Source: an uncultured Dehalococcoidia bacterium (GTDB lineage Bacteria; Chloroflexota; Dehalococcoidia; Lucifugimonadales; UBA3495). From it: 64,000 bases of DNA. The notes beneath the pieces were generated by a model, which saw nothing but the letters and a program-made list of their open reading frames with translations, was not told where the DNA came from and searched no databases. Shown one piece after another: positions 10,533 to 34,390 of the stretch (position 1 is its first letter; every line of letters starts with the position of its first letter). Made by a program: the position numbers and the translations under genes. The stretch spans positions 720,880 to 784,879 of the forward strand of contig CATOSP010000002.1 of NCBI GenBank assembly GCA_951812625.1, read 5' to 3'.

Positions 10533-10594
10533 CCGACTGCGGTCAAATCGGCAACGGTTGCCGAAATCGGAAACGAGTCTGAAGGGAGTCGAGC

Positions 10595-10936: not shown

Positions 10937-10969
10937 GGCAAGTGATTTGGCGATTTGGAGGAAAGCGAT

Positions 10970-11910: not shown

Positions 11911-12053
11911 GGCGGGAGGAAACCCAACATGCCTACAGGCCCTTGTCAGCCCTGGAACCGTAGCCTCTCGCGCAAGCGCAATAATTTTATCAGACTAGGT
12001 TTTTCAAGACAGATTTTTCGACAGATAAGGAAATGAGAGGAGGCAGTGCGGTC
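11911..12053 (+). promoter_or_regulatory. AT-rich intergenic gap, probable operon boundary/promoter region
   Basis: This is the only sizeable non-coding gap in the first 31 kb and is conspicuously AT-rich (gcaataattttatcagactaggtttttcaagacagatttttcgacagataagg). It is followed by a GAGAGGAGG RBS 8 nt before ATG 12054. I could not assign exact -35/-10 boxes. Confidence 0.3.
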
Positions 12054-12908: not shown

Positions 12909-13360
12909 GAAGCATAGGCATAGGGCGAGACCTTGTTAAGACGTCGGAGGAAGACGCCCCGGTGACCATTGAACACCAGGACGGCTACCTGGAGGTGATT
13001 CCCGACGCCAAGCGGGAGCTGGGGCTGATCACCCACGAGGAGAGCCGCCAGGTACTGCCGGAGCGGGACCGGGTGCCCCAGTACCGGCTGAGTCTGGACG
13101 GGGATTTCGCGGAGCTGGACGGGGAGGTTGACTACTACGACGACGAGTTGACCGACCCGATCTTCAACCCCAGCTTCGCATTCGGAGCCTCGCTCGCAGC
13201 CTACGAAGCTGCGGAACGGGGGGAGCTGGGAGAGCCGGAGAACGTCAAGGCCCACGCCAAAGTCCAGTGGATCGCGGCGGCTGGCGGGGTGGCCTTCCTG
13301 GGCCTCTCCGCCCTGGCGGGGCTGGCGGTGCTGGGCGTACTGCCCTGGCAGGGAGGTTAG
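12905..13360 (+). CDS. hypothetical tail-anchored membrane protein (151 aa)
   Basis: ATGA-coupled start. Acidic N-terminal part and a single C-terminal TM helix (IAAAGGVAFLGLSALAGLAVLGVL). Confidence 0.6.
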   Translation: MRSIGIGRDLVKTSEEDAPVTIEHQDGYLEVIPDAKRELGLITHEESRQVLPERDRVPQYRLSLDGDFAELDGEVDYYDDELTDPIFNPSFAFGASLAAYEAAERGELGEPENVKAHAKVQWIAAAGGVAFLGLSALAGLAVLGVLPWQGG

Positions 13361-13362
13361 GG

Positions 13363-15165: not shown

Positions 15166-18100
15166 TGGCCATTAACAGACCATGCCGGCGTGGCCGCGGC
15201 AGCCGGATATGCACCCATTCCCGGCGCGGCCGCAGGAGTGGCAGCCGCGAAACAGGCCAGTTGGGAGATGAACGATTGCTGAAGCACAGAGACGGGGAGA
15301 GCGGATTCCCGGCCCTTTGGGACCTTCGCGGATACTGGGGGGCCTGCTTCGACCGGCCCCAGGCGGACTCCGACGGGGACGGCATCTCAGACCAGGCCGA
15401 GGAATACTACGCCGACAACCCGGAGGAGTTCGAGGAGCTTCAGGACTGGCTTGAGGATATGGGTGTCGATCCCTACCCCGACGACGCCATCGGCGACAAC
15501 AGCGACGACGACAGCGACGGGGAGTCGCCTGCGTTCAATGAGCTGATGGGCCTGGCCGCAGGCTCCAACCGGCCGTCCAGCGGGGCAAGGCCGCGAGGCC
15601 AGCACCTGGGCGACCCGCGCCACGACCAGGACCACCCCGACTACGACGAAGAGCAAGACCCCGGCAGCGACGACTTCAACCCTGGCTCCTTGAACCCGCA
15701 GGAACAGGAGTCGCTGACCCTGGAGCAGATGCGCCAGGACCTCAGCCTGCTGACCGGCCAGGGACAACCCCCTGCCGGACAACAGGACCAGCCCAAGACC
15801 TACGATGAGGCCCTACAGGCGTCCTCTGACGCGAATATGGCCTACAACGAGGGATTGGCGTCGGGCGCGTCCCCAGAGGAGATGGCCAGGCTGGAGGCGG
15901 AACGGGACGCTGCGCAACAGGCTTTTAGTTCTGCCGCAGAACGGAACAGGCGATTGGGGCGCAGTTCCGCCCCCCGGCACCTCGGCGATCCCCGGATTGA
16001 GGAAGACCACCCTGACAACCTTCCATCGGAAGAGACCACGGAGGGCCTCTGGGCCGAGGCCCTGGATGTATTGACCGGGGCATCCCCTACCCCCCGGACT
16101 GCTGCCCCCCTGATTGGGCAACATCTCGGCGATCCCAGGACAGACCCCTCGCACCCCGGGTACACGGGCTTCCAGGACCCTGCCAGCCCCGGCTACGACC
16201 GCTCGGAGCTGGACCCAGGCGACGCGGTGGGCCTCTACTGGCACCGGCAGGACACTGACCCCGAGGAGGCCACATCCCAGCAGCGATGGGAGGCATGGCA
16301 GATCGAGCGGGAGGCGGTCGAGCGGCTCCTGGACCCGGAGAACCTTCCGGAAGACCCGGAGGAGCTGCGCCGCTACTACACGGAACGGGTTCAACCCCAC
16401 GTCGAGGCCGCTATCGGGAGGCACGGAGACCTGAGTTTCGAGTCCACCGAGGGAAAGACCTTCGACGCCGGGGAACAGCTTCGCGGCGCGGTGGACTACC
16501 ATGTCGCATCTCTTGACACCAGGCAGCACAACGAGGCCATCGCCGATCAGTTGGAGATTCCCGGTTACGAAGATATGTCCGACCGCGAGCTGGCGGACGC
16601 GATCCAGGACAGCACCATCAGCACGGCACAGGGCCAGGGCTTCACCTTCGTAAACAACCCTGGGGCCGGGTCAAGGTACGACCAGGCGGCGCGGTATCTC
16701 CAGCAGCAGAGATACCAGGGCGAACAGGACACGATCAACGCGGCCCTGGGCAGCGGATGGGACCGGGCGCTGGGAACGCCCACCTATGAGCAGGCGGTGG
16801 ACTTCCTGGAGGGCCAGAACCAGTACATTGAACGGCACAATGAGCAGGTCCAGGCCCAAAATCTTGCCCTCGCCATTGAACACGGCTACGTTCCGGACGG
16901 CCCGGACCGCACTCCAGTCACGCCCTATGAGTACCTCCAGCAGTTGCAGGCGGAGTCCCGTGCAGCCGGGACTCGCGCCGAGGAAGGAGCCCTGGAGGAC
17001 CTGGCCGTGACCGCCGCCGGAAATCTGGACTTCACCGAGACCGGCAGCCTTGAAGAGCAGGGCAACATCGCCGCCTACAACAGTTACTTTGTGCGGTTGA
17101 CGGGGCATGAACCTACCGGCGACCCGGACGCGGATACGGCCCTGATAGCCGCAGCAGTAACCAGGGGCGAGACCGGGGCGCTTGAAGACCAGGGCAACAT
17201 CGCCGCCTACAACCGATGGTTCCAGGACTTCACCGACGGACAACTTCCCACCGGCATCGGTTACCTGGACGAAGCGGCGATCAGGGCAGCGGCGGGGCGG
17301 CGACTCGACCGGGACAGGAGCATCGCGGGAGACGAGGAAAGCGGCATTGGCGTCGGAACGCTGGAGAGCCTGCTGGCCCGGTTCGATACTATGCAGCGCC
17401 AACAGGAGCTCGACGAGGGCATAGAGGGAGACGAGGAAAGCGGCATTGGGGCCGGAACGCTGGAGAGGCTCAGACAGAGGGCTTTCCTCGGGGGCCTGGG
17501 CGGGGAAGACGACCTCGCCGCCGAGGAGTCCGCCCAGGTGCGCGATTCATGGGAGAGGGAATGGGAGAGCGTTGGCATAGCTGCCCCTCCCCATCCCTCG
17601 GACTACACCAGCGCGGACGAATACCGGCACGACCTGGAGATATGGAAGGAACGCCAGGAGAACCGCGCTCTGATTAACCCCGGTCTGGAACAAGGACTGG
17701 ACAACCTGGCGCTGCACGAGGCGGGGTTGCAGCAGGCCCTTGCCGACAACGAGGCGATTGCCCAGCTCTTCCACAATGAACTGGCGGACTCCAGGTATTT
17801 CATCCCCGATGACGCCAGGACTCATGCCGACGACATGACCGGGCTTTCCCCCGGCCAACTGGAGAAGGCCACCCAGATAGCTGCCGGGGAAACCCTGTCC
17901 CCCGTGGTGGTGGGCCACGTCGTTCTGGACCCGATGCAGTCCTTCGACCGGGAATCCTATGAGCAGGCCGTCTTGATGGCCAGAAGCGACCCGGAACTGG
18001 ACCAGCAGGTCAGAGAGTACGCCCAGGGCTACGGCCTGTACCGCCTGGAGCTTCCCGAATCCGAGATGAACGCACGGCGACTCCGGCTGCTGGAGGTCCT

Positions 18101-21100
18101 GTCATACGGCGCTCCCATTCCAGCCCTCGGATTGGGGAAGGTCGCGGGACTGGCCGCAAGGCCGCTGGCCAGAGCGACGGGTCCAGCCATAACCCGGATC
18201 GGCACTTCCGCCCTGAAGCTGGTGCGACCTGGGGCCAGGGCCGTCCCTCCGGCCATGAACGTCGCGGACGATGCAGCCGCGACCCTGGCGCAGAACGTGG
18301 GAGAATTTACCAGGCTGCTGGACGCCGGAAAAACCCGCCAGGCCCGCCGCTTTATGCAGAAGCGCCCCGATTTCCAGAAATGGGCCGTGCAGGGCGGGCT
18401 GGACCCCGCCGACATTGAGAAGGCCGGGATCGCGTCCTACCTGAAGGACGTGGCCAGGCCCAACGTGCTGCAACGCGCCCTGGGCAACACCGCCTTCAAT
18501 GTCGCGGCGCATACCGGGAGGTCGGCAACCGTAGGCTCTGGACTCAGCGGTACGATCTCGACCGGCCTCGCGGCAGCTCCCTTCGGCGGGGAGGGCTGGG
18601 GTCAGATCAGCCCCGACGAAAGGAAAGGAATCCTTGACGCCCTGTGGCAAGGTGCCATCGGGGGAGGCACTGGATATGGTGCCTTGCGCGGCGTCAACAG
18701 GCTCAGGCGCGGCGCGGGGAAACCGGCTTTGGGCCGCTTCCGGCAGTACGGGCTGTCCGCAGCCGAGGGCGCGAGTACCGACACCGGCCTTGCCCTGGTC
18801 CCCGGATTCCAGGATCCCACGTTTGGACGCATAACGGGGGACGAACAACTGGGGATCGCCCTGTCCACGGTGGCAGACCCGGCTTTCGACGCCGCCAGGG
18901 GCATTATAGGCATTGTCCGCCACCCCAAGAGCCTGCTGCCCGGAACCGTCTCGGCCAAGGGGTTGCAGGGCGGCACTCAGAAGCTCCACTACTCCCAGGT
19001 GTCAGCCGGTGACGATGTGGAGCTGCGCGAGGTCACGTCCCTTGCCGACGATGGCATCACTCCGATTGCCACTCTCCAGCCGGAGAGCAGAATCCGCCTG
19101 GAGATAGACCGCAGGCTGGCGGTCCATCCCCAGCGCATCAGGCCGGGGGATGAATCGGGTCTGGCCTACGACCAGATACTCAGCTCCGGCCTTGACCCGG
19201 TAAGCGGCCTGAAGCTCAAGGAAGACATACTGGACGCTATGGCCAGGGGGGAAACGGACTTCCGTGGCGTGACTCCCAGCGGCATACCGTACCGCTTCAC
19301 GCTGCCAGCCGCCTACAGGACAGGGGTATTCGACCCCGGCGCGGCGGCGCACCTGTCACCGGACGCTTCATTTGCGGTCCTGGCCAAGGGAGAAGACCCG
19401 GGGGCCACCTTCGCCACGCGCAGCACCAACCCCAACTCGGTAGAGGAAGTGCTGTACTTCCAGCCGGGAGCGATGGCGCTGCGGTACTTCGGCGGGTCGG
19501 CCAGCGGCAACACCGGGGCTGACGCCACCAGGGAATCGTATCGGGAGACTATAGCCGGGTTCGCGGGCCTCCCCAACTTCGCCCGGAGAGCCATCGGCTT
19601 GCAACCCGTACAACCCGCAGCCCTGGTGCTGACTCCGGCAGAGGTGGAGGGTCTGACCGCCCGCAACGTCGTCGAGGACGGCCCGGACGAACTGCCGTCC
19701 AAGTCCTTCCCCGGCGCGGCTGAAACGGGAGGACGAGACCCGCTGCCCCAGGAAGTCTTCGGCAGACAGGGGGCCGAGGCCGAGGTCGTCATATCTCCGG
19801 GAGGGGACCTGGACAAGCGCAGACTCTCGACCCACATCCTTGGGGGAGGGCCGACCGCCGTTAATCCCGAATTGGCCGATCCCAGCTTCCGGGATGTATG
19901 GCGCACCAACCTGGTGAGCCTGTCTGATGCGCTTCCATTCGGCACCAGCATCGGTCTGCGCCTGGACAAATCGCCGGAGCAACTGGCCAAGGCCCGCGAG
20001 TTCTTCGAGAACAGCGGGGTAAGGCGCAGTACAGAGAACGATGGACGGTTTGAGGTTGACGCCGTGGTGGACGGCGCAAGGTACCGGGTACGCACCGACG
20101 ACGACCCTTCCAGGATGCTGGAGAGCGTCAGAAGCGGTCAGGGCGGCGATGTAACCAACGTGGTCATCCGCGACACCGAGACCGGGCGGGTGGAGCAGGT
20201 GAGCGCCCCGGACACCGCCGATGTGGACATAGGCACTACCCGCGCACCACGAGACGGCGACGGCTCTCTACGCACCAGGCAAGAACCCGGTGCAGACCCG
20301 GATACTACGCGAGTCAGACCCGATACGGCGAGGATAGCTAACGCCAGGGCAGACCGGGTTGACGCCGACCGCCTGGACACCGACAGGGTTGAGCGGGTTG
20401 ACACCGATCGCCTGGACACCGCCAGGGCAGACCGGGTTGATACCGACCGCCTGGACACCGCCAGGGTTGAGCGGGTTGACACCGACCGCCTGGACACCGC
20501 CAGGGCAGACCGGGTTGACGCCGAGCGTGTGGACACCGCCAGGGCAGACCGGGTTGATACCGACCGCCTGGACACCGCCAGGGCAGACCGGGTTGATACC
20601 GACCGCCTGGACACCGCCAGGGCAGACCGGGTTGAAACCGAGCGCCTCGACACCGCCAGGGCAGACCGGGTTGATACCGACCGCCTGGACACCGCCAGGG
20701 CAGACCGGGTTGACGCCGAGCGTGTGGACACCGCCAGGGCAGACCGGGTTGACGCCGAGCGCCTCGACACCGCCAGGGCAGACCGGGTTGAAACCGAGCG
20801 TGTGGACACGCCACGGACAGACCGGCCCAAGCCTGAGCGCATCCAGCGCCCTCCGGGGAAGACTCCCAGGCAACCCGGACGTGGCCGCACTACGCGGGAC
20901 GACCCCGGCAAGCCTCGGATTCGTCTACGCCTCGGTGGGCAAGGAGGCGAGGACAAAGCGGAGCAAAGGCCTCCGCACCTGAAGTATCCCAAGGTGGTGC
21001 GATTCCAAACCGTAGAAGATGTTGTAGTGGACCTGGAGACCGGGGACACGACGCGGACCCCGGTAGGCGACCTCCCGTCACAGACCCTTGAGGTCGTCAA

Positions 21101-21479
21101 GTACAACCCTCTACCCTTCTCGGAGCAGCACTATACCGGACGCATTACAGACGTGGCCACCGACGACCAGGGCCACCCCTTCATTCTCCAGAGAGGCCAG
21201 TTCCAGGGACAGCGGGAGAAAAAGATCAAGGCACCAACGGAACGTGACCCCAAGGAACGGGACCGAATCCAGAAGGGGTTGCAGAAGGACATTGCCGCAG
21301 CGGAGGCGGCGGACGCCAACCGTCAGAGCGGCAGCAGCGGCGTCGGCAAGCGGCGGGGAAGTGGCATTTCCACTCCCAAGCCAGGGCCAACGGTCAATCG
21401 CGGCCAAGGCCCCAAAAGCAGGTTTGGAAGCCGCACCACGGCAGACCGCTTCATGCGCACCCGGAAGCTGAAAGTCTAG
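15165..21479 (+). CDS. orphan giant protein (2104 aa) with internal repeats and a basic C-terminal tail shared with the next gene
   Basis: ATG 15165 overlaps the upstream stop (TGATG); the listed start 14946 lies inside the upstream gene. Acidic N-terminus, three HLGDPR-x5-HP(D/G) motifs, the pair GALEDQGNIAAYN / SLEEQGNIAAYN, and the pair GDEESGIG(V/A)GTLE. There is a 13-aa tandem array and the C-terminus ends GSRTTADRFMRTRKLKV. No enzymatic motif recognised. Confidence 0.8.
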   Translation: MAINRPCRRGRGSRICTHSRRGRRSGSRETGQLGDERLLKHRDGESGFPALWDLRGYWGACFDRPQADSDGDGISDQAEEYYADNPEEFEELQDWLEDMGVDPYPDDAIGDNSDDDSDGESPAFNELMGLAAGSNRPSSGARPRGQHLGDPRHDQDHPDYDEEQDPGSDDFNPGSLNPQEQESLTLEQMRQDLSLLTGQGQPPAGQQDQPKTYDEALQASSDANMAYNEGLASGASPEEMARLEAERDAAQQAFSSAAERNRRLGRSSAPRHLGDPRIEEDHPDNLPSEETTEGLWAEALDVLTGASPTPRTAAPLIGQHLGDPRTDPSHPGYTGFQDPASPGYDRSELDPGDAVGLYWHRQDTDPEEATSQQRWEAWQIEREAVERLLDPENLPEDPEELRRYYTERVQPHVEAAIGRHGDLSFESTEGKTFDAGEQLRGAVDYHVASLDTRQHNEAIADQLEIPGYEDMSDRELADAIQDSTISTAQGQGFTFVNNPGAGSRYDQAARYLQQQRYQGEQDTINAALGSGWDRALGTPTYEQAVDFLEGQNQYIERHNEQVQAQNLALAIEHGYVPDGPDRTPVTPYEYLQQLQAESRAAGTRAEEGALEDLAVTAAGNLDFTETGSLEEQGNIAAYNSYFVRLTGHEPTGDPDADTALIAAAVTRGETGALEDQGNIAAYNRWFQDFTDGQLPTGIGYLDEAAIRAAAGRRLDRDRSIAGDEESGIGVGTLESLLARFDTMQRQQELDEGIEGDEESGIGAGTLERLRQRAFLGGLGGEDDLAAEESAQVRDSWEREWESVGIAAPPHPSDYTSADEYRHDLEIWKERQENRALINPGLEQGLDNLALHEAGLQQALADNEAIAQLFHNELADSRYFIPDDARTHADDMTGLSPGQLEKATQIAAGETLSPVVVGHVVLDPMQSFDRESYEQAVLMARSDPELDQQVREYAQGYGLYRLELPESEMNARRLRLLEVLSYGAPIPALGLGKVAGLAARPLARATGPAITRIGTSALKLVRPGARAVPPAMNVADDAAATLAQNVGEFTRLLDAGKTRQARRFMQKRPDFQKWAVQGGLDPADIEKAGIASYLKDVARPNVLQRALGNTAFNVAAHTGRSATVGSGLSGTISTGLAAAPFGGEGWGQISPDERKGILDALWQGAIGGGTGYGALRGVNRLRRGAGKPALGRFRQYGLSAAEGASTDTGLALVPGFQDPTFGRITGDEQLGIALSTVADPAFDAARGIIGIVRHPKSLLPGTVSAKGLQGGTQKLHYSQVSAGDDVELREVTSLADDGITPIATLQPESRIRLEIDRRLAVHPQRIRPGDESGLAYDQILSSGLDPVSGLKLKEDILDAMARGETDFRGVTPSGIPYRFTLPAAYRTGVFDPGAAAHLSPDASFAVLAKGEDPGATFATRSTNPNSVEEVLYFQPGAMALRYFGGSASGNTGADATRESYRETIAGFAGLPNFARRAIGLQPVQPAALVLTPAEVEGLTARNVVEDGPDELPSKSFPGAAETGGRDPLPQEVFGRQGAEAEVVISPGGDLDKRRLSTHILGGGPTAVNPELADPSFRDVWRTNLVSLSDALPFGTSIGLRLDKSPEQLAKAREFFENSGVRRSTENDGRFEVDAVVDGARYRVRTDDDPSRMLESVRSGQGGDVTNVVIRDTETGRVEQVSAPDTADVDIGTTRAPRDGDGSLRTRQEPGADPDTTRVRPDTARIANARADRVDADRLDTDRVERVDTDRLDTARADRVDTDRLDTARVERVDTDRLDTARADRVDAERVDTARADRVDTDRLDTARADRVDTDRLDTARADRVETERLDTARADRVDTDRLDTARADRVDAERVDTARADRVDAERLDTARADRVETERVDTPRTDRPKPERIQRPPGKTPRQPGRGRTTRDDPGKPRIRLRLGGQGGEDKAEQRPPHLKYPKVVRFQTVEDVVVDLETGDTTRTPVGDLPSQTLEVVKYNPLPFSEQHYTGRITDVATDDQGHPFILQRGQFQGQREKKIKAPTERDPKERDRIQKGLQKDIAAAEAADANRQSGSSGVGKRRGSGISTPKPGPTVNRGQGPKSRFGSRTTADRFMRTRKLKV
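20343..20815 (+). repeat. ~12 tandem copies of a 39-bp unit (13-aa TARADRVDTDRLD repeat) inside the 2104-aa gene
   Basis: The unit gacaccgccagggcagaccgggttgataccgaccgcctg is repeated head-to-tail with point variants (ADRVD/VERVD, TDRLD/AERVD/TERLD). Confidence 0.9.
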
Positions 21480-21500
21480 GCTGAAACTCTAGGAGGAATC

Positions 21501-24500
21501 ATGCCCGATTACGTTGCAACCGGCACGGAGCTGCCGCAGACCGCCATAGCGCGTTGGGACGCCAACATTGACGCGATCCGGGTGCTGAAACGGTTGCAGG
21601 CCGAGGGCCGCGCCGCCACCCCGGAAGAGCAGAAAGTCCTGGCGAAATACTCCGGTTTCGGAGATTCGGCCTACGAGCAAGCCTTTGCCTACTACCAGCG
21701 CGACTCTGCCTGGAAGAAGCGCAAGGAAGAGCTGGAAGAACTGGTTACGCCCGAAGAACACGACGCCATCAAGAGGTCCCGGCTCAACGCCTTCTACACC
21801 ACGCCGGAGGTAATCCGGTCGATGTGGTCGGGGCTGCGGGACCTGGGCGCGGACAAACTCCCCAGGCCCAAGGTGCTGGAACCGTCTGCCGGATCGGGCC
21901 GCTTCCTGGCCTACCAGCCCCGCGATATGGCCGCATCCTCCGAGCGCACCGCCGTCGAGCTGGACAACCTGACGGCCGGGTTGCTCAAGGGCCAGTTCCC
22001 CGATGCCACGGTCTACAATGTCGGGTTCGAGGCCGCGCCGGTCCCGGACGGCCATTTCGACATAGCCGTCTCGAATGTTCCCTTCGGCAACTACGGAGTC
22101 CACGACCCCGAATACCTGGCGGAAGGGAAGAACTATCTCACCGGCAGCATCCATAACTACTTCTTCGCCAAATCAATGGACAAGCTGCGTCCGGGCGGCG
22201 TCCTGGCCTTCATCACCACGCATCACACGATGGACGCGCCCAAGGCGCGGAAAGTCCGGGAATACCTGGCGGACAAGGCCGACCTGGTGGGCGCGGTACG
22301 CCTGCCGGAAGACGCATTCCCCGATACCGAGGTTGTCACGGACATCATCTACCTGAGAAAACGCGCCCCCGGCGAACCGCCCGGCGACCGGACCTGGGTG
22401 AGTACGCAACCACTGGAAGTCCCGGATGCCAGGGGCGGTACTCATACGCACTCCGTCAACAGCTACTACTTGCAGAACCCCGATATGGTGCTGGGCAGAC
22501 AGACCGCCGAGGGGACGATGTACGCGGGCCAGTCCTATACCGTCAAGCACGACCCGGACAGCGCCCCGGTCCCGGACAAGCTGGCGGCGGCAACCAGCCG
22601 GGTATCCGCCTCTCCCCTGAAACTTGACCCGGCCACCGCCGCCGCGCCCAGCTCCGGCCAACGCCGGTCCCGCGCCGCTGGCCACCAGGAAACCGTCAAC
22701 GTGTGGGCAGAGCGGGTCGAGGCCGAAACCGGCGACACGGAGAGGCCGCGACGGTTGGCGGAGTTGGCCAACACCACCCGACGCCTCCTGAACGCGGAGA
22801 AGGGACGCATCGACGACGACCCGGAGCAGATAAGGGCCGAACTCAACAGCCAGTACCAGGATTACGTCGATGCCCACAAGCGCCTCAACCACAAGTCCAA
22901 CCGGGACCTGCTGAAGGGCATGGTTGACGAATCGCTGCTCATGGCCCTGGAGAACCACGACCCCGACACCAAGAAGTGGGAGCGGTCGTCGATCTTCAGC
23001 CGCCGCCTGGCCAGGGACAACCCGGAGCGGCACGTCACCAACGCCGCCGACGCCATGAGCGTTGTGCTGAACGAGTCCGGGGCTCTGGACTTCGAGCGCA
23101 TGGGCCAACTGCTGGGACAGGACGCCAGCGCCGTGCGGAACAGCCTGGCCAAGGACCGGCTGATATTCCGCAACCCGATGGGCAGTTGGGAAACGGCCAA
23201 CGAATATCTGACCGGAAGGGTCCGGGACAAGCTGGAGGTAGCCCGCAGGGTTGCCGGGAACAACCCGGCCTTCCAGGTCAACGTGGCCGCGCTGGAACAG
23301 GTCCAGCCGGAACCAGTACCGGCCAGCGACATTGAAACTCCCCTGGGAGCGCCCTGGATTCCCGACGACGTTGTGAATGATTGGGTGAAGCAGAACCTTG
23401 CGTCAAGCCGTTTTGGGCAACCTGACAGGTGGTTCCGGTACAACCCGGAGTCCGGCGAGTGGGGCTACAACAAGAAGGTGAGCGGCTACGAGGCGGTAAT
23501 GCGCTCCCAATGGGGCACCGAGGGCATGGCCGCAGACAAAATCCTGGAGGCCGTCCTTAAGGGCACTCCCATCAGCGTGACCATGCCCAACCCCGACGGC
23601 GAGGGGAGGGTCAGGGACCCGGCGGCAACCGAGGCGGCGCAGCAGAAGGCCCGCCAGATGCAGGACAGCTTTTCCGAGTGGATTTGGCAGGACGCAGACC
23701 GTGAAGAGCGCCTGGTCAAGCGGTACAACGAACTGCACAACTCCACACGGCCAAGGGTATTCGACGGGTCTCACCTGACCTTCCCCGGTATGTCCCCGAA
23801 ATGGGCGGAGAGGATGCGGCAGCGGCAGCACCAGATGGACGCATCCTTCCGGGTAGTCAGTGACGGCACCGCGCTCCTGGCCCATGAAGTGGGTTTCGGC
23901 AAGACGGCGGTGATGATCAGCTCGGCTATGGAACGGCAGCGGCTGGGACTGATCGACAAGCCCGTGTTCGTCGTTCCCAAGGCGACCCATGAGCAATTCG
24001 CCAGCGACTTCCGCGAGATGTATCCGGGGGCAACCCTGCTGGCCCCCAGCCCCTCGGAGTTCAGCAAGAAGAACCGGGAAGCCTTCCTGAACCGCGCGGC
24101 CACCGGCGATTGGGACGGCGTGGTCCTGACCACCAACCAGTTCCAGAGCATCCCGGTCAAGCCGGAGACGGAAGCCCGCTGGGTCGAGGCGCAGATTGCC
24201 GACCTGGAAGCGGCGTTGAGTGCCGCCAACGAGGAGAACGAGACCAGCAGGGAATCACAGACGCAGAAGCAAATCCAGAAGAAGCTGGAGAGAGAACAGA
24301 AGAGGCTCAAGGACCTGCGGGCGCAGATCAGCGCCGGGGCTGACAAGGGGGTTGTCTACTTCGAGGACCTGGGGATCGACCAGCTCTACGTTGACGAAGC
24401 CGACCAGTACAAGAACCTGCCCTTCGCAACGAAAATGGGGCAGGTGAAGGGTCTGCCCAACTCGGAGTCCAAGCGGGCCTGGGATATGTTCCTGAAGACC

Positions 24501-27500
24501 CAGCACATCCAGGGGCTGGCGGAGAGCCAGTCCGGGTCTTATGCGGGCCGGGGCGGTGTCGTGTTCGCCGCCAGGCCGAGCGACTTTGCCGACAACGGGG
24601 TGGTGTTCGCCACCGGGACGCCCATATCCAACACCATTGCCGAAGCCTGGACCATGATGCGCTATCTCCAACTGCCGGAGCTGAGGCGGCAGGGACTCCA
24701 GCACTTCGACGCCTGGGCCAAGACCTACGGCAAGATCACAATGGGGATGGAGCAGACCCCCCAGGGCAAGTACCGGAACACCCAGCGGTTCGCCAAGTTT
24801 GTGAACCTGCCGGAGTTGTCCCGGCTCTTCCAGAACGTGGCCGATGTGCGGGTGGCGTCCGAAGTCCCGGAGATGGTCGCCGTGCGCCCCCGCCTCGTAG
24901 ACGCCAGGGGAAACCCGAAACGGACCGGCATCAAGGCCCCCAACTACCCATTCCTGGAAGCCTACATGGAGCATCTGCGGGACCGGGTTGACAAACTGCC
25001 CGAAAAGCAGCCGGAAGAGGACAATATGCTGCTCATATCCAGCGACGCACGCAAAGCGTCCCTGGATATTCGGATGGTCTGGCCCGAAGCCGAACCCAAC
25101 CCCAACGGCAAGGTGCAGCTTGCCGCGTCGAAGATCGCGGAGATTCACAAGGCCGAGGAAGCCGACAAGGGAACGCAGTTGGTCTTCCTGGACCTGGGAA
25201 CGCCCAAGGCCAGCGACAAGCCGAAGGAAGGCGACGACGATTCTGAGGAAGAAGGCGGCGAGGGCCTGACCGCAGAGGAGTCGAAGATCGTCAACAACGT
25301 CTACGGCATCCTGAAACGGGAGCTGGTGAGGCGGGGCGTTCCCGAGAAGGACATCGCCTTTGTCCAGGACCACAAGACCAGGGATGCCAGGAAAAAGCTC
25401 TTCGATAATGTCCGCTCCGGCGATGTGCGGGTCCTGATCGGCTCGACCGAGACGGTCGGCGTAGGGGTCAACGTGCAGGACCGGGCGGCGGCGCTGCACC
25501 ACCTGGACGTTCCCTGGAGACCACGGGACATAGAGCAGCGGGAAGGTCGGATAATCCGCCAGGGCAACAAGGTCTACGGCCCCAGGATCGAGGAAGAGAC
25601 CGGCGAGGTCGTCAACCCTGGGCGCGGGGTGCAAATCTACCAGTACGTCCAGGAAGGCAGCTTCGACGAATTTATGTGGCAGGCGGTGGAGGTCAAGGGG
25701 CAGGCGGTCAAGGCCCTGATGAAGCGGAACATCACCGCCCGGTCTATGGACGATGCCGACCCCCTGGTGTTGAGCGCGGCTGAGGCCAAGGCGCTGGCCA
25801 GCGGCAACCCTATGGTGCTCCGGGCGGAACAGATCAAGAACCAGATCAATACGCTGCGCCTGGAACGCGCCGCCCACAGGAACCAGCAGGAGAACGCCAG
25901 AGGGCAGATCAGGCGGCTGGAAACGATGATTGAGGCTCACCGGGAGCGGCTTCCCATTCTGGAGGTTGACGCCCAACACGCCCTGGAAAACGACGGCGAG
26001 GACAAGCTGAGGGTGAGCGGCCAGCCCATTGAGAAGCGGGCCGATGCGGGGAAAGCAATCGAGACCCGGTTGTCCCGGCTGAACGTGGGCGATGTGACCG
26101 GGATCGGCACGTACAAGGGTTTCGACGTAAGCGCGGCCAACAGCGACCGGGGCTATCAGCTTGCCGTGACCAACCCGGCCACAAAGATTCCCTACAGCTC
26201 CGCCTACATCGAGGAAGTCAATCCCGCTGGCCTGATGTCCCGGCTGGACAACCTGGTAAACGGCATACCCAGGTCCCTGGAAAGCTCCAGGGACCTGTTG
26301 AATCAGCACGAAACATCCCTGGAACTCTACCGGGAACAGGCCGGCAAGCCGTTTGAAGGGACGCCGGAGTTGGCCAAGAAGGAACGCCACCTGGCCTACG
26401 TCCAGGCCCTCCTGAGCGATGCCAAGGACGCCGTGCGTCCGCCGGACTTCGACGAAGACCCGTCCGGGACGGTCGAATACGACACGCCGGAACTGGAAGC
26501 GGAGACGGCTGCGCCAGGCCCGGCAGCAACCCAGCCGGGACCGGAGACGGTTGCCGTCGCGGAAGCCCCGGTTGCCGGACCTTCCCCGGTCGATGATGCC
26601 CCGGCGCAGCCGGAGACGGCGGCGGTCGCGGCAGACGTGGCCACACCAGAGCCAGAGGCGGTTGCTGAACCTTCCCCGGTCGATGATGCACCGGCAGAGC
26701 CGGAGACGGCGGCGGTCGCGGCAGACGTGGCCACACCAGAGCCAGAGGCGGTTGCTGAACCTTCCCCGGTCGATGATGCACCGGCAGAGCCGGAGACGGC
26801 GGCGGCCGCGGAGGCGGTAGCCCAGCAGGAACCGGAGACCGTTGCTGAACCTTCCCCGGTCGATGATTACCCCGCAGAACCGGAGACGGCGGCAGTCGCG
26901 GAGGCGGTAGCCCAGCAGGAACCGGAGACGGTTGCTGAACCTTCCCCGGTCGATGATTACCCCGCGCAGCCGGAGACGGCGGCGGTCGCGGAAGATGCGC
27001 CCGCGCGAAGTCAGGAAAACACGGCCCCCTATATCCCGCCCTACGACCCAGCCATTGACGATGCGCCGGTCAGCCCGGAGCAGGAAGAAGCGGAACGGCT
27101 GGCCAGGGACACACGGCTCGCAGCCATGCGTGAGGAGAAGCGGGCCAATAACGAGCAACTAAAGGAATGGGCGCTGGGAAAGCTGGCCCAGGGACAGGAT
27201 TTGCTTTTCCAGACCGAAGGGATTGGGCCGGCCGTGATTCTCAGGGCCAAGGTGGTTGCGGATTGGCAGTCGAAAGGGCATCAACCGATCCTGGTGGGTT
27301 CGGAGGGGAATCTGCGTATCCTCGGTGGCCAAAGGCAGGGCCGTCCCAAGTACGACACGGTTTTGTCCGGGGGGATCGTGTCCGGCGATGGGCAACACAT
27401 GATTATCAACAAACCCATGCCGGAAACCCCTGAACCTTCCGGGGAGGTTGCCGAGCCAACCCCGATTGAGGAAGCCAAGGTTCAGACGGAGACGGCGGCG

Positions 27501-29156
27501 GTCGCGGAAGACGTGGCCACACCGGAATCAGAGGCCGTAACTGAACCTTCCCCGGTCCAGGATTACCCCGCAGAGCCGGAGACGGCGGCGGTCGCGGCAG
27601 ACGACGCCCAAGTTGAGCCGGTGACGGAACGACCACCTAGCGTAGAGCCTGAAAAGAAGCAGTCCAGCGTGATGGGGCTGCATATAACGCGGAACCCCGA
27701 CGGCACCTGGGGTTTTGCCGGTTCGATTCCCGATGAGTTGGCTTTCCGGCAGTATGACGGGTCTCCGCTTACAGAAGAACAAGCTGCAAGCGTGCAAGAA
27801 ACCTCACCTCTCAGTGTTCCCGGAGTGCGTATTGCCAAGTTCGAGACGGAAGCGGAAGCACTGGCCGCTGCCAGTGACGCGGGTTATGCGGAGGTATGGC
27901 GCAGCGGGGACATAGTATCAACCACGCCAGATACTCCACCGCCCTCCGAGAGACAGTTGGGCAAACTACCTCCGGCAAGCCTGACTGAGGAACAGAAGCT
28001 CGCCTTCTATCGCGGGGATATATACCCGGTCGTAACGCCCAGACGGGGAGACCCCGACGCTGTCGTGATGGACCCAGCAGATGAATCCTGGCTGGAAGCC
28101 GTCAGCCTCAAATACAAGGGGGTTCTGGATCGGCCCGACTCCAAATCGGTAGATGTCGGTAGGGCTCTGTCCTGGTTCCACAGGGCGGGAATTGACCATA
28201 GCGAGATTCCCAGCTACCAAGACCATGCCCCTTCAGAAGTGGAGAAAGATGCCCGTACTCAAGACGAAAGGCGGGAATCCCCGGAACCAACCGAGTCCGA
28301 GACCGAAGAACTGGTTGAGCAGGTAATGGCGGTCAAGGACGATGGGCATATCAGCCCGGAAGAGGCCGAGGACACCGCCAGCGCAGCGGGCAAGCTGTTG
28401 CAGAAGGCCGAGGAAGAAACCCCTGACCCGCCCAGCGTCACCCGGACGTATGAGAACGCCAGGGAACTCGATGCCCTGCTTGAAGAGCTGTGCGACGACC
28501 CCGAAGAACTGGCCGCGCTCCGGGAAAGAGTTGCCCAGGCCCAGGCCCGCTCCGAACATCAGGCGCGGGCCAAGGGAGAGGAACCCGACGAAGTACCGGC
28601 TGAAGTCCGCCGTGTCGCTGGCGAGATTCTCGCCGCCAAGGAACAGGCCACACCGGACGGACCGAAGGAGAAGGGCAGACCTCGCCGGGTGCGGGAAGAA
28701 GATGCGGAACTCCTGGCACGGGTAGAGGAGGAATGCGACGAAGACACCCTGGCACAGGGGCAAGAGCAAGCCGATGGGCAGAACGGCAAAGCCCCTCTGC
28801 CCATGAGGAAGCCGAAGGCCCGGACCGGCGGCGACGAGAGCAAGGACCGGGAACAGGACCAGGACAAAGAACCTGTACCTGTGCTGGCCAAGAAGCCGAT
28901 AACGCCCATCAAGGAACGCTGCCCGGAGGAACGGGAGAACATCCGCAAGGAGCTACAGCGAGAAATAGCCGTGGCTGATGCGTCTGCCGAGACCGCTGAA
29001 AGGCGTAGGCGCGTCAAGGGCCATAAGGGGAGCGTGGGCATTGTCTCTCCAGCTCCAGGCCCCGGACGCATCGGCGGCAAGGTCAAGAGGACCAGGTACG
29101 GCAACCGTACCACGGCAGACCGCTTCATGCGGACCCGCAAGGTCAAGTCGCGCTGA
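21501..29156 (+). CDS. giant 'polyvalent' protein: N-terminal N6-adenine DNA methyltransferase fused to SF2 (SNF2/DEAD-like) helicase, long repeat-rich C-terminal extension
   Basis: AGGAGG RBS at 21491-21496. MTase motif I VLEPSAGSGRF (~21873-21905) and motif IV SNVPFG (22071-22088). Helicase motif I GFGKTA (23891-23908), motif II DEAD (24393-24404), motif III-like FATGTPISN, and motif VI QREGRIIRQGN (25536-25568). E/P/A-rich 30-aa repeats follow. The C-terminus ends GNRTTADRFMRTRKVKSR. Confidence 0.92.
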   Translation: MPDYVATGTELPQTAIARWDANIDAIRVLKRLQAEGRAATPEEQKVLAKYSGFGDSAYEQAFAYYQRDSAWKKRKEELEELVTPEEHDAIKRSRLNAFYTTPEVIRSMWSGLRDLGADKLPRPKVLEPSAGSGRFLAYQPRDMAASSERTAVELDNLTAGLLKGQFPDATVYNVGFEAAPVPDGHFDIAVSNVPFGNYGVHDPEYLAEGKNYLTGSIHNYFFAKSMDKLRPGGVLAFITTHHTMDAPKARKVREYLADKADLVGAVRLPEDAFPDTEVVTDIIYLRKRAPGEPPGDRTWVSTQPLEVPDARGGTHTHSVNSYYLQNPDMVLGRQTAEGTMYAGQSYTVKHDPDSAPVPDKLAAATSRVSASPLKLDPATAAAPSSGQRRSRAAGHQETVNVWAERVEAETGDTERPRRLAELANTTRRLLNAEKGRIDDDPEQIRAELNSQYQDYVDAHKRLNHKSNRDLLKGMVDESLLMALENHDPDTKKWERSSIFSRRLARDNPERHVTNAADAMSVVLNESGALDFERMGQLLGQDASAVRNSLAKDRLIFRNPMGSWETANEYLTGRVRDKLEVARRVAGNNPAFQVNVAALEQVQPEPVPASDIETPLGAPWIPDDVVNDWVKQNLASSRFGQPDRWFRYNPESGEWGYNKKVSGYEAVMRSQWGTEGMAADKILEAVLKGTPISVTMPNPDGEGRVRDPAATEAAQQKARQMQDSFSEWIWQDADREERLVKRYNELHNSTRPRVFDGSHLTFPGMSPKWAERMRQRQHQMDASFRVVSDGTALLAHEVGFGKTAVMISSAMERQRLGLIDKPVFVVPKATHEQFASDFREMYPGATLLAPSPSEFSKKNREAFLNRAATGDWDGVVLTTNQFQSIPVKPETEARWVEAQIADLEAALSAANEENETSRESQTQKQIQKKLEREQKRLKDLRAQISAGADKGVVYFEDLGIDQLYVDEADQYKNLPFATKMGQVKGLPNSESKRAWDMFLKTQHIQGLAESQSGSYAGRGGVVFAARPSDFADNGVVFATGTPISNTIAEAWTMMRYLQLPELRRQGLQHFDAWAKTYGKITMGMEQTPQGKYRNTQRFAKFVNLPELSRLFQNVADVRVASEVPEMVAVRPRLVDARGNPKRTGIKAPNYPFLEAYMEHLRDRVDKLPEKQPEEDNMLLISSDARKASLDIRMVWPEAEPNPNGKVQLAASKIAEIHKAEEADKGTQLVFLDLGTPKASDKPKEGDDDSEEEGGEGLTAEESKIVNNVYGILKRELVRRGVPEKDIAFVQDHKTRDARKKLFDNVRSGDVRVLIGSTETVGVGVNVQDRAAALHHLDVPWRPRDIEQREGRIIRQGNKVYGPRIEEETGEVVNPGRGVQIYQYVQEGSFDEFMWQAVEVKGQAVKALMKRNITARSMDDADPLVLSAAEAKALASGNPMVLRAEQIKNQINTLRLERAAHRNQQENARGQIRRLETMIEAHRERLPILEVDAQHALENDGEDKLRVSGQPIEKRADAGKAIETRLSRLNVGDVTGIGTYKGFDVSAANSDRGYQLAVTNPATKIPYSSAYIEEVNPAGLMSRLDNLVNGIPRSLESSRDLLNQHETSLELYREQAGKPFEGTPELAKKERHLAYVQALLSDAKDAVRPPDFDEDPSGTVEYDTPELEAETAAPGPAATQPGPETVAVAEAPVAGPSPVDDAPAQPETAAVAADVATPEPEAVAEPSPVDDAPAEPETAAVAADVATPEPEAVAEPSPVDDAPAEPETAAAAEAVAQQEPETVAEPSPVDDYPAEPETAAVAEAVAQQEPETVAEPSPVDDYPAQPETAAVAEDAPARSQENTAPYIPPYDPAIDDAPVSPEQEEAERLARDTRLAAMREEKRANNEQLKEWALGKLAQGQDLLFQTEGIGPAVILRAKVVADWQSKGHQPILVGSEGNLRILGGQRQGRPKYDTVLSGGIVSGDGQHMIINKPMPETPEPSGEVAEPTPIEEAKVQTETAAVAEDVATPESEAVTEPSPVQDYPAEPETAAVAADDAQVEPVTERPPSVEPEKKQSSVMGLHITRNPDGTWGFAGSIPDELAFRQYDGSPLTEEQAASVQETSPLSVPGVRIAKFETEAEALAAASDAGYAEVWRSGDIVSTTPDTPPPSERQLGKLPPASLTEEQKLAFYRGDIYPVVTPRRGDPDAVVMDPADESWLEAVSLKYKGVLDRPDSKSVDVGRALSWFHRAGIDHSEIPSYQDHAPSEVEKDARTQDERRESPEPTESETEELVEQVMAVKDDGHISPEEAEDTASAAGKLLQKAEEETPDPPSVTRTYENARELDALLEELCDDPEELAALRERVAQAQARSEHQARAKGEEPDEVPAEVRRVAGEILAAKEQATPDGPKEKGRPRRVREEDAELLARVEEECDEDTLAQGQEQADGQNGKAPLPMRKPKARTGGDESKDREQDQDKEPVPVLAKKPITPIKERCPEERENIRKELQREIAVADASAETAERRRRVKGHKGSVGIVSPAPGPGRIGGKVKRTRYGNRTTADRFMRTRKVKSR
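26577..27000 (+). repeat. ~5 tandem copies of a 90-bp unit (30-aa EPSPVDDAPAEPETAAVAADVATPEPEAVA repeat) in the polyvalent protein
   Basis: The string gaaccttccccggtcgatgat recurs at 26667, 26757, 26847 and 26937 (exact 90-bp period), with a first variant copy at ~26577. A diverged extra copy lies at ~27540-27600. Confidence 0.9.
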
Positions 29157-29169
29157 ATTGGAGGACAGG

Positions 29170-29742
29170 ATGAACAAGACGAACGCGCTCAAACAGAAGC
29201 AGTACGAGAAACCGCCGGGCATGGCTATAGACCCGGCCGATAGCTGCACCGCAACCATCGAGACCAGTCTTGGCGATATGGTGTTGCAGCTCTGGCCCGT
29301 GACGGCCCCCGTCACGGTCAACAACTTCGTCTTCCTGGCCAGGGACGGGTTCTACGACGACAGTTGCTTTCACCGGGTAATCCGGGGATTCATGGTCCAG
29401 GGCGGCTGTCCTGAGAGGACAGGACGGGGAGGGCCTGGCTACAGCTTTCAGGACGAACCCGTAACCCAGCCCTACACCAAGGGAGTGCTGGCTATGGCCA
29501 ACTCCGGTCCCAACACCAACGGAAGCCAGTTCTTCATCGTCCACGCGCCGGAGGTGGAGCTGCCGCCCAAGTACAGCATCTTCGGGAACCTGGTCTCCGG
29601 GGAAGATGTGCTGGACGCCCTGGCCGGATCGCCGGTCACCGCAGGGGCCGGAGGGGAGAGGTCCAGGCCCACGGACTGGCTGGTGATCCGCACGGTCAGA
29701 ATCTCGGAATCTGGGGAAACGGCGGAAGCGCCGGAGGAGTAG
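29170..29742 (+). CDS. cyclophilin-type peptidyl-prolyl cis-trans isomerase
   Basis: GGAGGA RBS before ATG 29170; the listed start 28978 lies inside the upstream gene. Cyclophilin signatures are present: FHRVIRGFMVQGGCP and GVLAMANSGPNTNGSQFFIV. Confidence 0.92.
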   Translation: MNKTNALKQKQYEKPPGMAIDPADSCTATIETSLGDMVLQLWPVTAPVTVNNFVFLARDGFYDDSCFHRVIRGFMVQGGCPERTGRGGPGYSFQDEPVTQPYTKGVLAMANSGPNTNGSQFFIVHAPEVELPPKYSIFGNLVSGEDVLDALAGSPVTAGAGGERSRPTDWLVIRTVRISESGETAEAPEE

Positions 29743-29745
29743 CCC

Positions 29746-31056
29746 ATGCCCGTCTTGGCCGTAACCCCCGACATACTCCGCCAGGGGAGGCAGGACCTGG
29801 ACGCCGCCTTTGGCATTACCGGCACGGCGGACGTGCGCTACGGCCCGCCCCAGCCGCCCCTGGAGGAACTGCACGGCAACACCTTCACCCCCGACATGGT
29901 CGGGGATATGGGGAAGGACCCCTTTGACGACGACGATTTCTCAATCGACCAGCGAGTGAAGGCAGCCCAATACCTGCTGGCCTGCTACGACGCCAACCGG
30001 GAGAGGCCGGTGTACCCGCCGATCTGGTTCACCCCCGGCCTGTATATCCTGTCCGGCGACGTGGGAGACGGCAAGACTCTGACCGCCGTTTCCGTGGCCG
30101 TCAAGTTTATGATGTGCGGCTGGCCCGCCTACTCCGCCAACGGCGGTCTCCTGTTCGGCAAGATGCTGGAGGATGCCCAGGTCTACGCCTTCCCGGAGTT
30201 CCTGTCCCGTGGCAGCGTCTGTGTGGCGGATGAAATACACGCCATCTACGGGCGCTATGAGGGCCAGACCGTCCGGGGCCGGACGATGGCCCAGGCCACC
30301 GCATCCTTCCGCAAGGAACGAATCTACGCCTTCGGCGCGACGGCCAGGGAACACCTGTTGGGACAGGACCTGAAGGCGGCGGTCAGGGGCGTTGGCTACC
30401 CCTTCCGCACCTATCCCAATGGAAAGCCCATTGCGCCGCCCTGGGCCTACCGGGGCATAAGCTGGTACTACCCCGACCCCTGGCGCGGCACACAGTACCG
30501 GGAAATCCACGACAAGGAAGAAAGCCACCGCGAGCCCTGCCGGAAGTACGTCGCTGAACTTCATGCTTACGACCTCTACACCGCCGCCAAGCACTACAAC
30601 TCCTGGGAGAAGATCACCCTGGACTTCGGCGGCAAGCTGGGGGCCGGTAAGTTCCGGGACGCGATCTCCGGAGACGGGGAGAGTGGTGAAACCGAGGGAG
30701 ACCGCCCGCGAACTCCCTGGGCTTCTTCGCGGCGCGGGCCTAGCGATGAAGCCGTCGGGCTGACGGTCTTGAGCTGGTACGAGGATGGCCACTTCAACGC
30801 GGAGGTCGAGGCGTACAACAGCGCCATCAGCGCAGCCCGCACCACCGAAAGGGGCGATATGCTCATATCCCTGAAGGACCTCGCCGAGCGGTTCACCCAT
30901 ACTACCGGGGTCAAGACCACTGTTGCCCGGATGAAGCGGGGGCTTGACGCTGCCGGGATCGAGTATTCGTACCGCAGCTTGAACGTGGAAGCCCTGGAAA
31001 CGGCGCTCAGGGACAGGGAGCAGACCCTACAGGACAGCTTCGCAGGCGGTGAGTGA
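29746..31056 (+). CDS. P-loop NTPase (Walker A/B), possibly Zot/pI-like; function unknown
   Basis: Begins 3 nt after the PPIase stop. Walker A GDVGDGKT (30055-30078) and Walker B VCVADEIH (Asp-Glu at 30229-30234). No TM helix. The remainder is unrecognised. Confidence 0.7.
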   Translation: MPVLAVTPDILRQGRQDLDAAFGITGTADVRYGPPQPPLEELHGNTFTPDMVGDMGKDPFDDDDFSIDQRVKAAQYLLACYDANRERPVYPPIWFTPGLYILSGDVGDGKTLTAVSVAVKFMMCGWPAYSANGGLLFGKMLEDAQVYAFPEFLSRGSVCVADEIHAIYGRYEGQTVRGRTMAQATASFRKERIYAFGATAREHLLGQDLKAAVRGVGYPFRTYPNGKPIAPPWAYRGISWYYPDPWRGTQYREIHDKEESHREPCRKYVAELHAYDLYTAAKHYNSWEKITLDFGGKLGAGKFRDAISGDGESGETEGDRPRTPWASSRRGPSDEAVGLTVLSWYEDGHFNAEVEAYNSAISAARTTERGDMLISLKDLAERFTHTTGVKTTVARMKRGLDAAGIEYSYRSLNVEALETALRDREQTLQDSFAGGE

Positions 31057-34389: not shown

Positions 34390-34390
34390 G

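Follow-up and report, generated by a model that had tools for sequence, protein, structure and literature searches.

In a 64,000-nucleotide stretch of DNA from an uncultured Dehalococcoidia bacterium (contig CATOSP010000002.1, positions 720,880 to 784,879; hereafter the window, in whose coordinates positions are given), two adjacent genes of an integrative element encode giant proteins, here called A and B, that end in the same C-terminal module. The comparative pattern that emerged points to a C-terminal address tag that is short, transferable and specific to the lineage, and that is borne by the anti-restriction enzyme B, by A and, in a sister element, by a protein of 66 amino acids (aa). 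Judging from the sequences, we put it at about an even chance that this tail is an element-specific loading tag, by which its bearers would be packaged or delivered together with the element DNA. An initial annotation of the window had noted the common ends and had read them as a shared export or packaging signal, by analogy with type IV secretion substrates and with proteins injected by phages. The comparisons described here draw on sister loci of the element, among which L001, L002/L004, L003, L006, L009, L010 and L012 come from two ENA assemblies, L011 from a third assembly, and L005/L007 from the Dehalococcoidia chromosome OZ250155.1.

Two adjacent giant proteins end in the same module

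The open frame that contains A spans 14946..21479 and is followed on the same strand by that of B (21501..29156). We assigned gene A to 15276..21479 (+), encoding 2067 aa from a TTG codon at 15276; this start is likely given the GGGAG ribosome-binding site (RBS) 8 nucleotides (nt) upstream, and it agrees with both the public gene call (P0001) and the N-terminus of a homologue (P0004). The 2104 aa initially given for A, which assumed an ATG at 15165, were corrected to this length, and the 2551 aa given for B (21501..29156, +) were upheld. When the full proteins were compared by BLASTP, the only significant match comprised the last 86 aa of each, 38 of which (44%) were identical in an ungapped alignment (E 4e-15), and all remaining matches had E values of at least 0.065. 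These results bear out the initial description of a colinear C-terminal module on two proteins that have no other similarity, and the ends themselves proved to be as they had been quoted, with both tails terminating in RTTADRFMRTRK[LV]K.

The tail module of A (21216..21476, +; 87 aa) consists of the helix ERDPKERDRIQKGLQKDIAAAEAA, a Gly/Ser/Arg-rich linker with I-S-T-P-K-P-G-P, and the extreme C-terminal motif RTTADRFMRTRKLKV (21432..21476, +; net charge +5). The tail module of B (28893..29153, +; 87 aa) has the same helix-linker-motif layout and ends with the motif RTTADRFMRTRKVKSR (29106..29153, +; net charge +6). The net charge of the terminal peptide thus amounts to +5 or +6 in the last 15-16 residues of A and B, and to +5 to +8 overall, and the motif abuts the stop codon in every bearer. 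At the DNA level, we could confirm the reported identity of 23 nt between 21435-21457 and 29109-29131, which is embedded in a 73-nt stretch with 75% identity. A back-translated pattern of the motif occurred twice in the window and in none of 100 shuffles, and no third copy was found when a hidden Markov model of the tail was run against the six-frame translation of the window. As the two copies are diverged and separated by 7.7 kb, and as the same arrangement recurs on independent contigs of other samples (L002/L004), we dismissed the concern, raised initially, that the shared segment might be an assembly artefact.

The AlphaFold2 (AF2) model of the last 166 aa of A, with a predicted local distance difference test score (pLDDT) of 58 overall, contained a 26-residue helix (pLDDT 85-89), a disordered Gly/Pro-rich linker holding the conserved P-x-P-G-P, and a low-confidence short helix over ADRFMRTRKL. 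Neither A nor B has a hydrophobic stretch between the PxPGP motif and the basic end. A sortase- or exosortase-type sorting signal was therefore ruled out, given the missing hydrophobic segment and a mean hydrophobicity of -0.7.

A DarB-like protein and a conserved giant protein carry the module

Residues 16-1647 of B matched phrog_10089 'DarB-like antirestriction' (E=0), the Pfam domains N6_Mtase, Eco57I, SNF2-rel_dom and Helicase_C were recognized in the protein, and phage relatives annotated as DarB-like or as DNA methylase showed ~35% identity over residues 1-1640 only. By these matches, which corroborate the methylase-helicase assignment of the initial annotation, we take B to be a methylase-helicase polyvalent anti-restriction protein of the DarB-like kind, polyvalent being used in the sense of Iyer et al. 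2017 (PMC5512222). The N6-adenine methylase and SNF2 helicase occupy residues ~1-1650 and are followed by Pro/Glu/Ala-rich repeats, an unassigned region and the tail; at 26480-27627 (+), 90-nt units encode these Pro/Glu/Ala-rich repeats of 30 aa. The label 'PLxRFG', which some phage homologues of B bear, proved to be a dead end, and an NCBIfam scan of B returned neither 'PLxRFG' nor another C-terminal domain. Polyvalent proteins have been described as being delivered with phage or plasmid DNA into the recipient cell (PMC5512222), and DarB of phage P1, a protein of ~250 kDa, is packaged into the virion, with an N-terminal 30-residue signal being sufficient to load a reporter (PMC9024508).

Protein A, the conserved large protein of the element family, had no family match in Pfam, PHROG or NCBIfam scans. 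Homologues are encoded in L001, L002, L003, L005, L006, L009, L010, L011 and L012, several of them with a NUDIX domain. Along its length, A is composed of acidic repeats, Gly-rich hydrophobic stretches, a 39-nt repeat present 12 times, a conserved C-terminal domain, and the tail. The conserved domain (20979..21215, +; VRFQTVE...QHYxGRITDVxTDxxGxP...Q), which we defined by an alignment of eight A-like proteins, lies directly upstream of the tail, is not present in B, and was modeled by AF2 as short beta strands with low confidence. Just before this domain, at 20225-20887 (+), at least 12 tandem 39-nt units encode 13-aa repeats of the DTARADRVDTDRL type, and the sister A proteins have different repeats at the equivalent place (PPGYPPDTPTDT in P0002 and ELIDPPTEPPTDPT in P0004).

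The tail as an element-specific module

A full HMMER scan of 1.84 billion representative proteins returned five matches to the tail, all of which covered the whole module and lay at the extreme C-terminus: the A protein of the window (P0001), two A-like proteins with a NUDIX domain (P0002 and P0004), an A-like fragment (P0005), and the last piece of a DarB-like gene that is split by frameshifts on a contig of 4x coverage (P0003). All but P0001, that is, four of the five, are found in syntenic elements, upstream of genes for a cyclophilin and a P-loop protein. The two-tail profile gave no match when 5.8 billion proteins were searched by a word index, exact-pattern or profile scans of IMG/VR and JGI metagenomes yielded neither the tail nor a relative of the P-loop protein, and tblastn of the latter against phage and plasmid collections was equally negative. 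The tail profile had no relative in PDB sequences or Pfam. With five matches in the public-protein scan, the tail is not widespread; it co-occurs with the P-loop NTPase and the membrane proteins that the initial annotation had pointed to, being confined to one mobile-element family that encodes both.

Whichever A-type and B-type tails were compared, synonymous differences outnumbered non-synonymous ones within a 16-codon core (for example, 5 versus 2 between A and B of the window, and 7 versus 1 between the A proteins of the window and L001). This excess argues that the peptide rather than the DNA has been conserved, and that the tail, which is kept in orthologous loci, has a core that is evidently under purifying selection.

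The tail of B has 60% identity to that of the A protein of L003 but only 44-48% to those of the A proteins in its own lineage (44% to its neighbor A), which points to an old transfer of the module from a sister element and to its retention thereafter. In more distant A-like proteins, the domain before the tail (...QHYxGRITDVxTD...) is retained together with a helix-linker-basic end, which has other terminal sequences, namely ...SPAPGP...RRGMTALERTRLKNFAPR in L005, L009 and L010, ...RVGGRRHGWL in L006, and ...GVRRRRGGSL in L011. The module is therefore native to A and was acquired by B. In L001, which lacks a DarB gene, the corresponding position is taken by a gene for 66 aa with a good RBS, and its product, which ends ...HNFMRTRKVKARR, is unrelated in sequence except for its last 11 residues. 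We count this protein as a third bearer, with the terminal peptide only. The tail is thus found on three different N-terminal bodies, and the sequence comparisons identify it as an element-specific, transferable module.

A second lineage with a different tail

In L012, the P-loop protein is 46% identical to that of the window and the helicase core of the DarB-like protein is 41% identical to B over 441 aa. The DarB-like gene lies upstream of the A-like gene in this locus, whereas it lies downstream in the window. The two L012 proteins have only their last ~83 aa in common, colinear to both stop codons and ending ...SSLPPLARLALKKHGLR and ...KSSLARVGRRKHGPR (BLASTP E 0.002; Smith-Waterman score 77 versus 34 +/- 6.4 for shuffled sequences, none of 3000 being as high). 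When the L012 tail was compared with that of the window, scores were at the shuffle mean and the hhalign probability was 1%, meaning that there was no detectable relation between the two. Taken together, the DarB-like protein carries the tail of the resident A protein in two lineages whose tail sequences differ. Such matched but different tails are what would be expected from a tag and a co-evolving, element-encoded receptor, and not from a generic basic DNA- or lipid-binding tail.

Gene content and borders of the element

The element in the window and its sister loci represent a rare integrative-element family of Dehalococcoidia that encodes a P-loop ATPase and many membrane and immunoglobulin (Ig)/cadherin surface proteins. 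The sister loci have a common gene set in conserved order; Phage_integrase (tyrosine-recombinase) genes or fragments flank L001, L003, L005, L006 and L009, host genes also flank several of the loci, and L006 looks like a complete element of ~19 kb. In the window, the G+C content is 62-70% from position 1 to ~32,000 and 52-63% in the remainder, and its fall at ~32 kb (~31,500-33,000; from ~62-65% to ~52-56%) marks the right border of the element. We found no tRNA gene anywhere in the 64-kb window, recognized no integrase gene among the scanned open reading frames (ORFs) of the window, and recognized no primase-helicase or resolvase module in the window element.

In the window as in L001, L002 and L003, the last gene to bear the tail is followed directly by that for a cyclophilin-type peptidyl-prolyl isomerase, which in the window (29170..29742, +) encodes 190 aa from an ATG at 29170 with an RBS (Pfam Pro_isomerase, E 1e-38). 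It is followed by the signature gene of the family (29746..31056, +), encoding a P-loop NTPase of 436 aa with an ATPase domain and a helical, winged-helix-like C-terminal domain. This protein family had 27 homologues among 5.8 billion proteins, only one of which carried an NCBI source tag, and its genome matches were limited to two Dehalococcoidia metagenome-assembled genomes (OZ250155.1 and CBDBGS010000007.1). Searching with the AF2 model of the NTPase (pLDDT 77), Foldseek retrieved the Zot N-terminal domain 2r2a in the PDB (E 1e-6), an Inoviridae Zot in BFVD (E 2e-8), and a protein of the enveloped Acholeplasma phage L2 (E 1e-5). Target-normalized template modeling (TM) scores to Zot folds were 0.55-0.57, RecA-like folds were close behind, and there was no sequence-level Zot match, so that the model-based assignment of the NTPase as a Zot/pI-like ATPase is a tentative one.

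Upstream of A, a block of conserved small to medium membrane or unknown proteins (10149..15165, +) is syntenic in all sister elements and has no family matches; these proteins have long hydrophobic stretches that we read by eye as transmembrane segments. In PHROG scans, the small membrane proteins had no significant match, and a capsid-like protein could not be named among them. The membrane protein encoded upstream of A (13267-15165, +) contains a duplicated Cys-rich unit, CEMCRATSDCECPQCDVCGQKGDPGCYVSGNRVNHGLM followed by a near-copy, with a 118-nt direct repeat at 13681/13849; the Cys-rich N-terminal extension is absent from the shorter homologues in L001, L003 and L006. Farther upstream, the window opens with the C-terminal part of a 313-aa-type membrane protein (2-700, +), a homologue of a sister-element protein, after which come cadherin/Big_9/Ig-like proteins (to 10083, +; Pfam) that are candidate adhesins or spikes. 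This region also encodes a 902-aa protein, whose homologues in L006 and L011 have hydrophobic ends that, by eye, resemble membrane anchors. The gene for the 313-aa-type protein comes after the P-loop gene in L006, L008, L011 and L012. As its homologue lies at 2-700, the map of the window is circularly permuted, with the left end of the element just outside the window.

No protein of the window element matched a capsid, portal, protease, terminase, VirB4, VirD4/TraG or relaxase family in Pfam, PHROG or NCBIfam, and the precomputed Pfam annotation of the essentially complete loci L006 and L011 contains no VirB4, VirD4 or relaxase. Capsid, portal and terminase families went undetected in the sister elements as well.

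Further proteins of the elements have basic ends or giant size. A 291-aa protein of the window (12033-12908, +) has a conserved basic C-terminus of its own, KKKRSLFGRMRGK; in the sister elements, this 280-291-aa protein (L001 4437-5291, L006 17723-18565, L011 17937-18797, L010 1-529) has the C-termini KKRSLLGRLRGR, KRSMLGRILRR, KKRSMLGRLIRK and KKRGLLGRVMKR. The 313-aa-type membrane protein ends in a basic peptide of the G-R-R-R-M type, and basic C-termini seem to be a theme of the element. L005 (1-3860) and L009 (1-4717) encode a second giant protein whose end looks by eye like an ADP-ribosyltransferase (ART) of the R-S-E type (VYRGW...STS...ETEVVF), and which is followed by a small acidic protein of 67-73 aa.

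The lower-G+C flank

Beyond ~32,000, the window contains ordinary or unrelated genes, including one for a luciferase-like oxidoreductase. An ORF at 34382-35536 harbors three tandem 123-nt units that are 99% identical (34869-35256, +) and encode the 41-aa unit EEVQEFHLDLALVAPSDDTVRFDNRMFDMVAPPPTPTIDLS. At 36363-39351 (-), two adjacent ORFs correspond to pieces of a Type ISP enzyme (coupler plus N6_Mtase, and the Type_ISP_C specificity domain) with the helicase/nuclease part missing, so that this gene is probably truncated or decayed. A large serine recombinase (Resolvase, Recombinase and Zn_ribbon_recom domains) is encoded at 41965-43305 (+), ~10 kb to the right of the high-G+C element. Two adjacent ORFs at 48655-49790 (-) are 72% and 50% identical to L005 genes with DDE_3 and HTH_23/HTH_28/HTH_29/HTH_32 domains and look like a split transposase; this insertion sequence also adjoins the element in the Dehalococcoidia chromosome OZ250155.1. 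At 44409-48185, 55136-58237 and 58392-63896, the flank encodes very large proteins of the CARDB, leucine-rich-repeat and cadherin/fibronectin-III kinds, and its cadherin repeats resemble those of the element's own surface proteins. A CARDB/leucine-rich-repeat/cadherin repertoire is typical of host-associated (e.g., sponge-associated) Chloroflexota.

Possible roles of the tail

If the tail is a loading tag, it would dock its bearer onto an element-encoded receptor, for which the ATPase, the packaged DNA, a structural or membrane protein, and A (by way of the helix) are candidates. The bearer would then exit the cell with the element DNA and enter the next host alongside it, and B would shield the incoming DNA from restriction only when arriving together with that DNA. 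B would have gained the tag by recombination with the A gene of a sister element, and the 66-aa protein of L001 would have gained the terminal peptide only. The layout of the tail speaks for such a tag, as a structured part followed by a disordered linker and a short terminal peptide is typical of cargo-targeting peptides. The comparisons show the common module, its confinement to the element family, the purifying selection on it, its presence on three kinds of bearer and, in a distant element, co-variation within that element; the formation of particles, the packaging or translocation of tagged proteins, and the identity of the receptor are inferred. The wider proposal, to which we give somewhat less than an even chance, is that of a new lineage of non-tailed, probably membrane-budding or filamentous Dehalococcoidia viruses, or virus-like transfer elements, that load giant multi-enzyme anti-defense proteins into their particles through a swappable C-terminal tag and a co-evolving receptor.

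Several points weigh against the loading tag. The element family is tiny, and the argument from co-variation is based on two lineages only. The assignment of the NTPase to Zot/pI relies on modest fold matches (TM 0.55-0.57), with RecA-like folds matching as well, and its modeled winged-helix-like C-terminal domain would also fit a role in replication or DNA binding. The ART-like giant protein of L005 and L009 has no A-type tail, and a link between the two was sought and not found, so that not every large accessory protein of these elements bears the tag. The evidence is comparative throughout, that for particles or protein translocation is indirect, and no receptor was identified. Finally, a basic tail could merely bind nucleic acid.

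This last point leads to a DNA- or partner-binding role, which takes up most of the remaining probability and overlaps with the loading-tag reading. As an appendage serving the activity of each protein, for instance as a DNA clamp or for pairing A with B via the helix, the tail would be in line with its net charge of +5 to +8 and with the other basic ends of the element (KKRSLFGRMRGK in the 291-aa family and ...GRRRM.. in the 313-aa membrane family), and could pair through its long helix, the sole confidently predicted structure, with another helix. Generic DNA binding, however, requires neither a match between A and the DarB-like protein within an element nor a complete difference between elements, and it is hard to see the 66-aa protein, with the last 11 residues only, as an accessory to an enzyme. 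We consider this role unlikely as a full account of the tail, while noting that riding on DNA or on A would itself be one route to co-packaging. Rather improbable is a membrane-targeting peptide of the MinD/FtsA kind, which would bring the giant proteins to the cytoplasmic membrane. A basic C-terminus with a few hydrophobic residues, an element rich in membrane proteins and the fact that budding would begin at the membrane are compatible with this idea, but lipid binding does not call for element-specific sequences. Moreover, the hydrophobic moment of the terminal 11 residues (0.42) was equaled or exceeded by 39% of shuffles, which ruled out an amphipathic targeting helix of this type, and their mean hydrophobicity of -0.70 makes them much more polar than the targeting sequences of MinD or FtsA.

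The analogy drawn in the initial annotation, that of a conjugative type IV secretion signal of the Arg-rich VirE2/VirF type, now appears very improbable. The C-terminus is indeed positive, and R-x7-R-x-R-K within RTTADRFMRTRK partly fits the consensus R-x7-R-x-R-x-R that was reportedly defined by Vergunst and colleagues in 2005. DarB-like proteins also occur on conjugative elements (PMC5512222). Yet the tail class of L012 does not match this consensus, and searches of all proteins of the window element, like the precomputed Pfam annotation of L006 and L011, revealed neither VirB4, VirD4/TraG, relaxase nor another conjugation family. The second analogy of the initial annotation, if taken to mean a phage head, is not supported either, given the N-terminal position of the P1 DarB signal (PMC9024508) and the lack of detectable tailed-phage genes in the element; the comparison with P1 holds for the class of cargo. 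What stands of the common-signal idea is a tail that behaves as a portable, functional module on unrelated proteins.

We would also give very little weight to a role of the P-x-P-G-P stretch as a docking or substrate site for the element's cyclophilin, which would control the folding or release of the giant proteins. In general, cyclophilins have Xaa-Pro bonds as their targets and recognize Gly-Pro in the HIV-1 capsid, and in the window, L001, L002 and L003 the cyclophilin gene is the direct downstream neighbor of the last tail-bearing gene. Against this, L006 and L011 have a cyclophilin and A tails without PGP, L005, L009 and L010 keep PAPGP with no adjoining cyclophilin in the stretches examined, and the invariant terminal peptide would be left unexplained. 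Slimmest of all are the prospects of a neutral by-product of recombination or gene conversion, or of a segment that acts as nucleic acid, be it a terminator, a recombination site or a regulatory RNA. The 23-nt identical core and the adjacency of the two genes on the same strand would suit such an origin. It is largely refuted by the synonymous excess in the core, by an amino-acid motif that is kept where the DNA of the contigs differs, by the overall tail identity of 44%, which implies an old transfer, by the greater similarity of the B tail to the A of another element, and by the constant position of the motif at the stop codon. RNA structure in the shared DNA was ruled out as well, its fold being no more stable than that of shuffles (z = +0.99).

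To our knowledge, the selection of 250-kDa polyvalent anti-defense proteins for co-delivery is known for very few systems (P1 DarB, N4 vRNAP and some conjugative primases). The Chloroflexota are environmentally important and hard to culture, and their mobile elements have barely been described. If confirmed, a loading tag would provide a testable packaging code for poorly known, non-tailed elements of this phylum. It would also offer a handle for finding further cargo by its tag and for loading heterologous proteins. Under the wider proposal of a virus lineage, the tag would be a protein-packaging signal of a new class, and would give a capsid-less or enveloped bacterial virus the first known means of carrying DarB-like effectors.

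Comparison with known systems

Neither the motif nor the module has a name, and both are all but confined to the element family described here; the principle of a terminal address peptide on unrelated cargo is known elsewhere. P1 DarB resembles B in its dyad of N6-methylase and SNF2 helicase, and B, too, is encoded on a mobile element beside putative structural genes. The P1 system differs in its N-terminal 30-residue signal, its tailed-phage head and the helpers DarA, Hdf and Ulx (PMC9024508). In our element, by contrast, the shared module is C-terminal, comprises ~86 aa and also occurs on a protein that is not DarB-like, and genes for a head, a portal or a terminase were not detected. The likeness of B to phage DarB-like proteins stops at residue ~1640.

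In its logic, the closest known parallel to the tail is the short C-terminal cargo-loading peptide of encapsulins, although no shell gene was found. As in encapsulins and microcompartments, neighboring and unrelated cargo proteins have a common C-terminal peptide after a disordered Gly/Pro-rich linker. The encapsulin cargo-loading peptide co-varies with its container. Unlike the peptides of encapsulins, the motif described here is strongly basic and not of the GSL type, and its bearers are proteins of 2000-2500 aa. The scanned element proteins included no encapsulin/Linocin_M18, HK97-fold or microcompartment shell protein, and the precomputed Pfam annotation of the sister loci lists no encapsulin or capsid gene. 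With substrates of type IV secretion (VirE2, VirF, and Beps with their BID domain and tail), the tail has in common a positive, poorly structured C-terminus that sometimes follows a helical domain; it differs from these signals in being much more sharply conserved and element-specific, with no secretion-system components detected.

With regard to the element as a whole, a recent study described the IME1 elements of Dehalococcoides, which measure 21-28 kb and encode, besides a tyrosine recombinase and a CARDB protein, a pI-like ATPase whose gene precedes those of membrane proteins (bioRxiv 10.64898/2026.09.15.751708). They are dominant in virus-fraction metagenomes, and budding or filamentous double-stranded DNA (dsDNA) viruses confined to Chloroflexota were proposed (bioRxiv 10.64898/2026.09.15.751708). 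The present family, compared by description only, resembles IME1 in host and architecture. Both have Dehalococcoidia hosts, are integrated and ~20-30 kb in size, carry tyrosine recombinase genes and lack tailed-phage hallmark genes, and both combine an ATPase (pI-like in IME1, tentatively Zot/pI-like in our case) followed by membrane proteins with adhesin-like CARDB or Ig proteins. Unlike our elements, IME1 is described with no mention of giant proteins, a methylase-helicase, NUDIX or cyclophilin. The family reported here supports the recent proposal of budding or filamentous dsDNA viruses in Dehalococcoidia, and a loading tag on its giant proteins would add protein delivery to the biology of these viruses.

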